Made by a program: the position numbers and the translations under genes | Shown here: piece after piece, positions 7,417-10,913 of the stretch | Numbering within the stretch: position 1 is the first letter of the stretch | Layout: every line of letters begins with the position of its first letter | Source of the DNA: a virus | Virus genome (UHGV): UHGV-0220142 | DNA: 10,913 nt | Strand: one strand, 5' to 3' | Notes under the pieces: model-generated | Database searches by the model: none | What the model was told of the DNA's origin: nothing | What the model saw: the letters and a program-made list of their open reading frames with translations, nothing else

Positions 7417-7446
7417 GTTTACACTGATGAAGAAACATTATATAAT
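7417..7446 (+). promoter_or_regulatory. early-promoter-like element: GTTTAC, 18-bp spacer, TATAAT
   Basis: GTTTAC 7417-7422 and TATAAT 7441-7446, in the gap upstream of the pin-like gene. Confidence 0.4.
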
Positions 7447-7486
7447 GAACCAACGATAAATGACTTAATTGATATGGAGATGGGAC

Positions 7487-7972
7487 ATGATTACAGTAGA
7501 TAAGTGGTTTAGAATTAATCGTGCTGATACAGGGCTGTGTAATTACTGGCCGGAACTTAGTGCAGGTACTGTCTTTAAAGTTCGTGAACTTGCAAAAGAA
7601 TGTGAAGATGATATAGAGCCTGACACTGGAATTATTGAAATTGAACTTTCTGATGGAAAGATTATTAACATCTACGATAAGCCAATTACGTATTGGTGCT
7701 TGTGGAATACTGAATCAGTAGAAAATGGCGAAATTGAAGAAGTTGTAGATAGAACTAATCAAGTTGTTCAGAAGCCTAAAGCTGATTTTCAAGGTGAACG
7801 TATTTCATACGCATTAGCTAAATTAGCTGCACAAGAAAATAACGATGGCTATGAAGGAAATTTGATGCAAGCTGCGGCAGAATATATTGAATGGCTTGAA
7901 ACCCAAATTTCTTTTTCTGACCAAAAGATTCGGCAATATAAGCGATTGAATCAAATGTTTTACAATACTTGA
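7487..7972 (+). CDS. pin: candidate Pin-like protein (inhibitor of host Lon protease), 161 aa; assigned by position and size only
   Basis: Track ORF starts at TTG 7469. ATG 7487 with GGAGA 7 nt upstream gives a 161-aa product. It lies immediately upstream of gene 49, as pin does in T4. The sequence itself was not recognised. Confidence 0.45.
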   Translation: MITVDKWFRINRADTGLCNYWPELSAGTVFKVRELAKECEDDIEPDTGIIEIELSDGKIINIYDKPITYWCLWNTESVENGEIEEVVDRTNQVVQKPKADFQGERISYALAKLAAQENNDGYEGNLMQAAAEYIEWLETQISFSDQKIRQYKRLNQMFYNT

Positions 7973-7976
7973 AAAT

Positions 7977-7984
7977 AATAAATA
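7977..7984 (+). promoter_or_regulatory. late-promoter-like octamer AATAAATA, one mismatch from TATAAATA
   Basis: Sits just upstream of, and overlapping, the 5' arm of the gene 49 hairpin, so a transcript starting a few nt downstream would lack the 5' arm. Confidence 0.25.
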
Positions 7985-8015
7985 CCCTTATCTATTTAAG
8001 GTAAGGGTTTTATTA
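7984..8015 (+). terminator. stem-loop followed by T-rich run; candidate intrinsic terminator and/or SD-sequestering hairpin before gene 49
   Basis: ACCCTTA (7984-7990) pairs with TAAGGGT (8002-8008), extendable to ~10 bp with a 5-nt loop ATTTA, followed by TTTTATT. The 3' arm contains the gene 49 SD AAGGG (8003-8007), 7 nt before ATG 8015. Confidence 0.45.
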
Positions 8016-8488
8016 TGTTATTGACTGGCAAATTATATAAAGAAGAAAAACAGAAATTTTATGATGCACAAAACGGTAAATGCTTAATTTGCCAACGAGA
8101 ACTAAATCCTGACGTTCAAGCTAATCACCTCGACCATGACCATGAATTAAATGGACCAAAAGCAGGAAAAGTACGTGGATTGCTTTGTAATCTCTGCAAT
8201 GCCACAGAAGGTCAAATGAAGCACAAATTTAATCGTTCTGGCTTAAAGGGACAAGGTGTTGATTATCTTGAATGGTTAGAAAATTTACTTACTTATTTAA
8301 AATCCGATTACACCCAAAATAATATTCACCCTAACTTCGTTGGAGATAAATCAAAGGAATTTTCTCGTTTAGGAAAAGAGGAAATGATGGCCGAGATGCT
8401 TCAAAGAGGATTTGAATATAATGAATCTGACACCAAAACACAATTAATAGCTTCATTTAAGAAGCAGCTTAGAAAGAGTTTAAAATGA
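8015..8488 (+). CDS. 49: recombination endonuclease VII (Holliday-junction resolvase), 157 aa
   Basis: 157-aa product with zinc-binding Cys pairs CLIC and CNLC and the HLDHDH catalytic His/Asp cluster. N-terminal sequence MLLTGKLYKEEKQKFYDAQNGK matches my recollection of T4 gp49. Stop overlaps the nrdD start (ATGA 8485-8488). Confidence 0.92.
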   Translation: MLLTGKLYKEEKQKFYDAQNGKCLICQRELNPDVQANHLDHDHELNGPKAGKVRGLLCNLCNATEGQMKHKFNRSGLKGQGVDYLEWLENLLTYLKSDYTQNNIHPNFVGDKSKEFSRLGKEEMMAEMLQRGFEYNESDTKTQLIASFKKQLRKSLK

Positions 8489-10302
8489 CAATTGAAAAAG
8501 AAATTGAAGGATTGATTCATAAAACTAATAAAGACCTTTTAAACGAGAATGCTAATAAAGATTCTCGTGTTTTTCCAACTCAACGGGACCTTATGGCTGG
8601 TATTGTGTCTAAACACATTGCCAAAAATATGGTCCCGTCTTTTATTATGAAAGCGCATGAAAGCGGAATTATTCATTTTCATGATATTGATTATTCCCCT
8701 GCTCTTCCATTTACTAATTGCTGTTTAGTAGATTTAAAAGGAATGCTTGAGAACGGATTTAAGCTTGGTAATGCACAGATTGAAACTCCTAAATCAATTG
8801 GCGTTGCTACTGCAATTATGGCACAAATTACTGCACAGGTTGCTTCTCACCAATACGGCGGAACGACTTTTGCGAATGTAGATAAAGTACTTTCTCCTTA
8901 TGTTAAACGCACCTATGCAAAACATATTGAGGATGCAGAAAAATGGCAAATCGCTGATGCGTTGAATTATGCTCAATCTAAAACAGAAAAAGATGTATAC
9001 GATGCATTCCAAGCTTATGAATATGAAGTAAATACTCTCTTTAGTTCAAACGGACAGACTCCTTTTGTAACAATTACATTTGGTACGGGAACTGACTGGA
9101 CTGAACGAATGATTCAGAAAGCAATTCTGAAAAATCGTATTAAAGGTCTTGGTCGTGATGGGATAACTCCTATTTTCCCTAAGCTTGTTATGTTCGTTGA
9201 AGAAGGTGTTAATCTTTATAAAGACGATCCGAACTATGATATTAAGCAGCTTGCTTTAGAGTGCGCAAGCAAAAGAATGTATCCTGACATCATTTCGGCT
9301 AAGAACAATAAAGCTATCACCGGCTCATCTATTCCTGTTTCTCCAATGGGTTGCCGTAGTTTCTTGAGCGTATGGAAAGATTCGACTGGTAATGAAATTC
9401 TTGATGGACGTAATAATCTCGGTGTTGTAACACTGAATCTTCCTCGCATTGCGTTAGATTCTTATATTGGAACACAGTTCAATGAACAGAAATTTGCCGA
9501 ATTGTTCGATGAACGAATGGATTTGTGTTTTGAAGCTTTGATGTGTAGAATTAGTTCCTTAAAAGGAGTTAAAGCGACTGTTGCTCCTATTCTTTACCAA
9601 GAAGGTGCATTCGGGGTCCGTCTTAAACCTGATGACGACATAATTGAGTTATTTAAAAACGGTAGAAGTTCAGTGTCTTTAGGATACATTGGTATTCACG
9701 AATTGAATATTCTTGTCGGTCGTGATATTGGACGAGAAATTTTAACTAAGATGAATGCTCATCTTAAACAGTGGACTGAAAGAACCGGATTTGCTTTTAG
9801 TTTATATTCGACTCCTGCTGAAAACCTTTGCTATCGCTTCTGTAAACTCGATACAGAAAAATATGGAAGCGTAAAAGATGTTACTGATAAAGGCTGGTAC
9901 ACTAACAGTTTCCACGTTTCAGTAGAAGAAAATATTACTCCGTTTGAAAAGATTTCTCGTGAAGCGCCATATCATTTCATTGCGACAGGTGGTCACATTT
10001 CTTATGTTGAACTTCCTGATATGAAAAATAACTTAAAGGGTCTTGAGGCCGTATGGGATTATGCTGCACAACATTTAGATTATTTTGGTGTTAATATGCC
10101 AGTAGATAAATGTTTTACATGTGGAAGTACCCATGAAATGACTCCTACTGAAAACGGATTTGTTTGTTCTATTTGTGGAGAAACTGATCCTAAAAAGATG
10201 AACACCATAAGAAGAACATGCGGATATCTTGGAACTCCTAGCGTTGTTCCATGGAATTTAGGTAAAATGAAAGAAATGGTAAAACGAGTAAAACATGCAT
10301 AG
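8485..10302 (+). CDS. nrdD: anaerobic ribonucleoside-triphosphate reductase (class III RNR), 605 aa, uninterrupted
   Basis: C-terminal glycyl-radical motif RRTCGYLG, preceding C4 zinc ribbon (CFTCGS...CSICGE) and overall length typical of NrdD. Single continuous ORF. Confidence 0.95.
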   Translation: MTIEKEIEGLIHKTNKDLLNENANKDSRVFPTQRDLMAGIVSKHIAKNMVPSFIMKAHESGIIHFHDIDYSPALPFTNCCLVDLKGMLENGFKLGNAQIETPKSIGVATAIMAQITAQVASHQYGGTTFANVDKVLSPYVKRTYAKHIEDAEKWQIADALNYAQSKTEKDVYDAFQAYEYEVNTLFSSNGQTPFVTITFGTGTDWTERMIQKAILKNRIKGLGRDGITPIFPKLVMFVEEGVNLYKDDPNYDIKQLALECASKRMYPDIISAKNNKAITGSSIPVSPMGCRSFLSVWKDSTGNEILDGRNNLGVVTLNLPRIALDSYIGTQFNEQKFAELFDERMDLCFEALMCRISSLKGVKATVAPILYQEGAFGVRLKPDDDIIELFKNGRSSVSLGYIGIHELNILVGRDIGREILTKMNAHLKQWTERTGFAFSLYSTPAENLCYRFCKLDTEKYGSVKDVTDKGWYTNSFHVSVEENITPFEKISREAPYHFIATGGHISYVELPDMKNNLKGLEAVWDYAAQHLDYFGVNMPVDKCFTCGSTHEMTPTENGFVCSICGETDPKKMNTIRRTCGYLGTPSVVPWNLGKMKEMVKRVKHA

Positions 10303-10913
10303 GTATTATATAATTTATAAAATAACAAATATAATTAATTCAAAGGAATATATCGGTGCGCATAGCACCGATAACATAAATGACGGTTATATGGGATCAG
10401 GAACATTGATTCGTGCTGCTTTATTAAAATATGGTAGAAAAAATTTTTATAAAGAAATTTTATATGTTTTTGATAATGAAAAGCAAATGTATGATAAAGA
10501 AGCTGAACTTGTAACTGAAGAGTATTGTCTAAAAGAAAATACATATAATATTAAACCTGGTGGAAAAGGTGGAACTGCCTATGAACAGACACTTGAACAT
10601 CGCCACAAAAATAGTTTAGCAAATAAAGGTAAAAAGAGAACAGAAGAAACTAAAATAGCTATTTCACGTGCTTTAAAGAAATATAAACGTACGCCAGAGC
10701 ATCAAGCAAATTTAAATAAAGCCGTAAGCATAGCTATGAAGCGAAAAGATGTTAGAAGTAAATTAGCTGGAGAGCGGTCTGAGAAAGATAAATTATCTAT
10801 ATCAAACGGTGTTAAAAAATATTACAATTCTTTGAGTGAAGAAGAACGCGAACTTCATCGCAAGCGAATTATTGAAGGTAAAAAGAATTCTCCCATGTCA
10901 TTGGAATCTAGAC
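10295..10913 (+). CDS. GIY-YIG family homing endonuclease, 3'-truncated by window edge; sits in a slot comparable to mobC/segH of T4-like phages
   Basis: Not in the ORF track because no stop is reached. ATG 10295 overlaps the last 8 nt of nrdD. The frame stays open to the window end. Motifs: YIIYKITN...YIG, conserved Arg (LIRAAL), VFDN, Glu (KEAELV), Asn (TYNIKPGGKGG). NUMOD3-like repeat KKRTEETKIAISRALK. Clear paralog of the 689-1408 gene (shared NINDxYxGSG, VFDN, AE(I/L)L). Confidence 0.8.
   Translation, partial: MHRYYIIYKITNIINSKEYIGAHSTDNINDGYMGSGTLIRAALLKYGRKNFYKEILYVFDNEKQMYDKEAELVTEEYCLKENTYNIKPGGKGGTAYEQTLEHRHKNSLANKGKKRTEETKIAISRALKKYKRTPEHQANLNKAVSIAMKRKDVRSKLAGERSEKDKLSISNGVKKYYNSLSEEERELHRKRIIEGKKNSPMSLESR

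Follow-up and report, generated by a model that had tools for sequence, protein, structure and literature searches.

In a T4-like phage, the leader of gene 49 (recombination and packaging endonuclease VII) combines a T4-type late promoter with a hairpin that holds the Shine-Dalgarno sequence, and this element is in all likelihood the temporal translational switch of T4 gene 49. The sequence that we analyzed (the window) is a stretch of 10,913 nucleotides from the virus genome UHGV-0220142. The element itself is the one already described for T4 gene 49, seen here in a close relative of T4, and only two differences separate it from its T4 counterpart: an extra T and the loss of the GUG start codon for gp49'. 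The arrangement of box and hairpin is clearly beyond chance, given its identity to T4, a start codon region that is the most occluded of 17, and conservation that extends past the level of sequence. The working of the switch in vivo is taken from the T4 literature, and we expect that it would be the same in this phage; by this analogy, endonuclease VII would very probably be under T4-like, late-only translational control.

In the proposed mechanism, transcripts that start upstream and read through pin would fold into a 10-bp hairpin and a lower A-U helix, and the folded long RNA is computed to bury both the gene 49 Shine-Dalgarno sequence and part of the AUG. Late in infection, RNA polymerase with gp55 would recognize AATAAATA (7977-7984) and, by the T4 promoter rule, would start at about A7990. 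The resulting transcript would lack most of the 5' arm (6 of its 10 bases) and all of the lower helix, so its Shine-Dalgarno sequence would be single-stranded. Full-length endonuclease VII would then be made mainly late, though its gene lies within an early transcription unit. Such timing would match the need to resolve branched DNA for packaging, and premature synthesis of a junction-cutting nuclease would thereby be avoided.

The gene 49 locus of a T4-like phage

The source of the window is a T4-like phage (Tequatrovirus). In a nucleotide database comparison, positions 7600-8500 had 99.2% identity to phage teqhad, and at least 80% of this interval was covered by 505 phage records. Across the entire window, the best identity was about 97%, to RB6 and its relatives.

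The open reading frame at 8015-8488 (+ strand, 157 amino acids) matches the Pfam families Endonuclease_7 and Endonuc-dimeris (PF02945 and PF09124; the latter is the dimerization domain of T4 endonuclease VII), and its product differs from T4 gp49 at one residue. Upstream and in the same direction is pin (7469-7972, + strand), which encodes a Lon protease inhibitor (Pfam Inhibitor_I24, E = 3e-48, along with T4-like synteny) and ends with a TGA stop codon at 7970-7972. Downstream is nrdD (8485-10302, + strand; 605 amino acids; Pfam NRDD and Gly_radical), whose start overlaps the stop of gene 49. The order pin-49-nrdD is the order in T4, and gene 49 is thus an endonuclease VII orthologue in its expected context. 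Upstream of pin, a consensus scan gave a candidate sigma-70-type early promoter (TTTACA-17-TATAAT at 7418-7446, + strand; 11 of 12 matches). Judging by its sequence, this predicted promoter is strong, and it could give rise to long early transcripts that continue through pin and into the hairpin.

A hairpin and a lower helix are predicted to cover the start of gene 49

The stretch that links the pin stop codon to the ATG of gene 49 (at 8015) reads AAAATAATAAATACCCTTATCTATTTAAGGTAAGGGTTTTATT. Within it, RNA folding gave a hairpin on the + strand with the 5' arm ACCCTTATCT (7984-7993), the loop ATTTA (7994-7998), and the 3' arm AGGTAAGGGT (7999-8008); both arms were also found by a pattern scan and are supported by the covariation that is described below. 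The stem has 10 base pairs, one of them U.G. A Shine-Dalgarno-like AAGGG (8003-8007, + strand) lies inside the 3' arm, with 7 nt between it and the AUG. The hairpin is followed by TTTTATT (8008-8014), whose first T doubles as the closing pair of the stem. Both the coordinates and the fold bear out the initial annotation, which had described a stem-loop of about 10 bp at 7984-8008, followed by TTTTATT, with the Shine-Dalgarno sequence in its 3' arm.

In the minimum free energy (MFE) and centroid structures, the U-rich tract TTTATTAT (8009-8016, + strand) pairs with positions 7975-7982 to form a lower helix of 8 A-U pairs, which is predicted to cover the A and the U of the gene 49 AUG as well. 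The RNA from 7960 to 8040 has an MFE of -18.2 kcal/mol (z = -3.0), and 1 of 200 shuffled sequences was as stable. The pattern scan scored the hairpin as terminator-like, with 10 pairs of which 4 are G-C. Taken alone, the hairpin appears moderately unusual by these calculations. Of the 17 ORF starts on the + strand of the window, that of gene 49 is predicted to be the most occluded, with a mean unpaired probability of 0.062 for its initiation region; the next lowest value is 0.18, with a median of about 0.5. (The runner-up among the + strand ORFs, at 0.18, is the ORF at 1854-2381.) An Rfam scan of 7700-8300 gave nothing at the gathering threshold and only chance-level matches well short of it: PyrR (24 bits, with a gathering threshold of 54) and the rnk leader (20 bits, with a threshold of 50).

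A late-promoter box is placed for a predicted start inside the hairpin

T4 late promoters have TATAAATA at -13 to -6 (PMC1524935). Of 50 listed T4 late-promoter sites, 32 are perfect matches and 9 have A at -13, which is the commonest variant (PMC2988020). The box upstream of gene 49, AATAAATA (7977-7984, + strand), is this A(-13) variant, and T4 has the same sequence. The last A of the box is the first base of the hairpin stem. Because the late box occupies -13 to -6, the predicted start is the A that lies six bases past the box, at about 7990 on the + strand and inside the 5' arm. Furthermore, A7990 is nearly invariant in an alignment of 32 distinct sequences. This geometry agrees with the earlier proposal that the box at 7977-7984 is positioned for a start inside the hairpin.

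The 8-mer alone is not above chance, as AATAAATA occurs once in the window and 2.75 occurrences are expected. The canonical TATAAATA does not occur on either strand of the whole 10.9-kb window (1.8 expected). Instead, what makes the box significant is where it lies, that it is identical in T4, and that it is conserved. (A single AATAAATA and no TATAAATA would fit a region of early genes with one embedded late promoter.)

To quantify the effect of the start site, the probability that the Shine-Dalgarno sequence (8003-8007) is unpaired was computed from partition functions over different RNA 5' ends. This probability was 0.001 for RNAs with a 5' end at or upstream of 7984, and it was 0.62 for a 5' end at 7988, 0.84 at 7990, and 0.87 at 7992. 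By prediction, transcripts that start upstream contain a helix that sequesters the Shine-Dalgarno sequence, and the stem of that helix is backed by covariation. In the same type of comparison across 32 distinct relatives, the Shine-Dalgarno zone was predicted to be more accessible in the late RNA than in the long RNA for 31 of them, with a median of 0.53 for the late RNA versus 0.22 for the long RNA. For some relatives, L032, L047, and L049 among them, the predicted gain is modest.

Comparison with T4 and with other switches

The initial annotation had named the T4 gene 49 upstream sequence as the one to compare. We found that, over the 48 nt that begin at the pin stop codon and lead to the ATG of gene 49, the sequence is the same as in T4 (AF158101) except for one inserted T: the stem is followed by TTT in T4 and by TTTT here. 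The extra T gives the lower A-U helix 8 pairs instead of 7 and adds 1 nt to the spacing between the Shine-Dalgarno sequence and the AUG. The neighboring genes, the AATAAATA box, both arms of the stem, the loop, and the Shine-Dalgarno sequence are all shared with T4. Because the two stretches are identical bar one T, reports on the T4 gene 49 element apply here. Barth, Powell, Trupin and Mosig reportedly described, in 1988 (Genetics 120:329), a hairpin in the initiation region of T4 gene 49 with an overlapping late promoter, and the support for the gene 49 mechanism is said to have come, until now, mainly from that one study.

One review lists T4 gene 49, together with e, soc, and I-TevI, among the genes whose Shine-Dalgarno sequence and/or AUG is sequestered in an RNA helix (PMC3014915, section 29). 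Another also includes gene 49, for which its text prints '39', and cites Barth et al. 1988 for the sequestration of ribosome binding sites on long polycistronic transcripts (PMC2988022, section 12). These listings are in line with the earlier claim that a hairpin blocks translation of T4 gene 49 on long transcripts. The switches of T4 gene e (lysozyme), soc, and I-TevI share the same logic: a late gene lies within an early or middle transcription unit, the Shine-Dalgarno sequence and/or AUG is hidden in long RNAs, and the DNA that encodes the 5' arm contains a late promoter (PMC3014915, PMC2988022). In contrast, the genes and the sequences involved are unrelated to gene 49.

Published T4 time courses are consistent with a delay between transcription and translation of gene 49. 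Its RNA is classed as early, and the protein (END7) had zero LFQ intensity from 0 to 8 minutes, was first detected at 12 minutes in 2 of 3 replicates, and was up at 20 and 30 minutes, like late baseplate proteins (PMC9697503 and its supplements). In the same supplements, pin is classed as early for RNA and as middle for protein. The delay in END7 could instead mean that its early abundance was under the detection limit. Our literature search found no usable genome-wide maps of T4 transcription starts or terminators.

The module is conserved across lineages of Straboviridae

The late-promoter-in-hairpin module upstream of gene 49 is probably an ancient, structurally conserved cis-regulatory RNA of most of the gp49-encoding lineages of Straboviridae that were sampled. 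The sample included 44 gene 49 loci from IMG/VR, with 50-99% identity of the gp49 protein, to which we added GenBank phages from other lineages (Pseudotevenvirus Miller, an Acinetobacter phage, Aeromonas 31.2, and Krischvirus KFS-EC) and 17 further loci that were found by using single divergent gp49 proteins as queries. Of the 66 loci, which represent several lineages of Straboviridae, 63 have a hairpin upstream of gene 49 with a TAAATA box positioned at or inside its 5' arm. (The 63 loci are all 44 of the IMG/VR relatives, the 4 GenBank phages, and 15 of the further loci.) In the same 63 loci, the 3' arm bears a Shine-Dalgarno sequence (GAGG, AAGG, GGAA, or GGAGG), and its end is separated from the start codon by 0-7 nt. 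The lineages with the module are Tequatrovirus and other Tevenvirinae, Pseudotevenvirus, Krischvirus, and Acinetobacter and Aeromonas phages, including Aeh1-like phages.

The sequences of the arms vary. The 5' arms differ by clade (ACCCTTATCT, GGTTCATCT, GAGTCAT, CTCTTATCT, CCTCTATA, ATGACACC, and CTATCATCT), and there are at least a dozen distinct stem sequences among the relatives. Nevertheless, each of the 32 distinct relatives has its box placed such that transcription would start inside the 5' arm or past it. In a plain MAFFT alignment of 32 distinct sequences, TAAATA is the sole invariant block. As controls for covariation in this alignment, the 3' partners were slid by 1-3 columns. Standard pairs filled 88.3% of the cells of the ten stem pairs (38-47% in the slid controls), there were 61 compensatory cells (versus 5-20), and the covariation score was 0.468 (versus 0.08-0.14). 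Changes on both sides were seen in 6 of the 10 stem pairs. Four rows of the alignment (L037, L038, L034, and L045) are out of register with the stem and were retained, so the stem pair counts are conservative. These compensatory changes imply that the stem is selected as an RNA structure. Furthermore, the U.G wobble is kept in 27 of the 32 sequences, which favors a helix in the + strand RNA over a DNA palindrome.

The promoter box also varies with lineage. Late promoters of phage Aeh1 have (a/g)C at -13/-12, that is, (a/g)CTAAATA (PMC2988020). In the four Aeh1-like loci (L041-L044), the gene 49 hairpin is preceded by GCTAAATA or ACTAAATA (G/ACTAAATA), which is the late-promoter consensus of that lineage. 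Since the Aeh1-like loci carry their own lineage's variant, the box follows the promoter specificity of the lineage. Going by these sequences, the promoter box may have co-evolved with the specificity of each lineage's gp55.

The 3 exceptions among the 66 loci are KVP40-like Vibrio phages (L050, L057, and L058), which have neither the box nor the hairpin at their gene 49 homologue. In these phages, the homologue is flanked by genes on the opposite strand, so there is no read-in from upstream co-directional genes. The KVP40-like phages can be viewed, anecdotally, as a natural control for the switch, and the module may be missing only where gene 49 is not co-directional with the genes upstream.

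One locus has a different layout. In L068 (IMGVR_UViG_2974770551_000001, at about 550-615), a divergent relative, TATAAATA lies near the loop within the hairpin CCTCCAATA...TATTGGAGG, which places the entire 5' arm before the predicted late start; the logic is kept.

For comparison, the gene e structure is found in close T4 relatives only and is absent in Aeh1, 44RR, 25, and 31 (PMC3014915). In contrast, the gene 49 module is present in Aeh1-like phages, in Aeromonas 31.2, and in Acinetobacter, Pseudotevenvirus, and Krischvirus phages. In the T4 literature that we surveyed, we did not find a comparable breadth of conservation reported for gene 49, and only genes e and 25 had been compared in this way. 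The breadth of conservation is a modest extension of what was known; it does not amount to a new kind of system, and it raises no new question. As phylogenetic support, the comparative result is unusually clean, in that it combines conservation throughout the family, compensatory changes, and a promoter variant that matches the lineage. It would justify the definition of an RNA family for the gene 49 leader.

Other explanations for the hairpin

The hairpin resembles a Rho-independent terminator, which likewise has a G+C-containing stem and then a U-rich run, and pattern-based tools do predict a terminator here. A 10-bp stem with four G-C pairs is followed by TTTATTAT (the tail in the scan was UUUAUUAU), this phage has one more U after the stem than T4 does, and an identical hairpin in phage G2133 is annotated as an ARNOLD-predicted terminator (-10.7). 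As a terminator or attenuator, whether mainly or in addition to another role, the hairpin would end the pin unit or stabilize the 3' end of the pin mRNA and would limit early read-through to gene 49 and nrdD. We consider this rather unlikely, although it is the alternative that we take most seriously. Unlike in a typical terminator, the U-run is interrupted, and it can pair with the upstream A-rich sequence in the lower helix. The U-tract is also limited to the T4-type clade: elsewhere the hairpin is conserved without a U-run, and in most relatives the stem runs directly into the ATG (as in ...GAACCTATG). Furthermore, the early class of T4 gene 49 RNA (PMC9697503) implies that at least part of the upstream transcription reads through the hairpin, and nrdD, which overlaps the gene 49 stop, showed no strong promoter of its own in the consensus promoter scan. 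Because the U-tract is not conserved in other clades, a secondary role as a terminator would be confined to the T4-type clade, where a partial terminator or 3'-stabilizer function is possible. Some related genome records label the hairpin a "terminator", yet its main role would be to gate translation.

It is also conceivable that the inverted repeat acts as DNA, either as a palindrome that binds a protein or as a cruciform that is cut by endonuclease VII. The repeat is nearly perfect and adjoins the gene for a cruciform-cutting enzyme, but this link is speculative, and we consider a DNA-level role to be highly improbable. The U.G pair that is kept in 27 of the 32 sequences would become an A.C mismatch in the opposite strand, the letters of the stem vary freely with pairing retained, and the 3' arm always has the Shine-Dalgarno sequence at the proper distance from the start codon; for these three reasons we rejected the DNA palindrome. 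Least probable of all, with almost no weight in our judgment, is that an AT-rich 8-mer and a functionless hairpin occur together by chance. The window is AT-rich and shows no enrichment of the 8-mer, and it has 3 terminator-like matches with 1.5 expected. Chance would not account for the identity to T4, the family-wide conservation, the compensatory changes, and the lineage-matched promoter variant, and these comparative data led us to reject it.

Features within and downstream of gene 49

The module of hairpin and late promoter is conserved, in contrast to the T4-type internal start within gene 49. In T4, the nested protein gp49' starts at an internal GUG (codon 53, after AGGAAAG). In the window (8170-8173), this codon is GTA, and the base at 8170 is A where T4 has G; both the change at 8170 and the change in codon 53 are synonymous. 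In 44 relatives, codon 53 is GTT in 28, GTC in 6, GTA in 4, GTG in 4, and ATT in 2. With GTG in just 4 of 44 relatives, the internal start of gp49' lacks conservation, and, to judge from the sequence, gp49' is probably not made from codon 53 in this phage. Also inside gene 49 is AAATGCTTAA (8078-8087), which we take to resemble the MotA box of T4 middle promoters; we saw no convincing -10 element at the usual spacing from it. The T4 record states that gp49' "has its own promoter".

Beyond gene 49, nrdD is a single uninterrupted ORF, whereas in T4 a group I intron with the gene for I-TevII interrupts nrdD. An ORF at 10295-10913 overlaps the nrdD stop by 8 nt and runs off the end of the window. 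It has no Pfam match at E <= 0.001, matches homing-endonuclease families (PHROG 314, E = 5e-51), and by eye has a GIY-YIG- or Seg-like N-terminus. T4 differs at this position in having the HNH endonuclease mobC.
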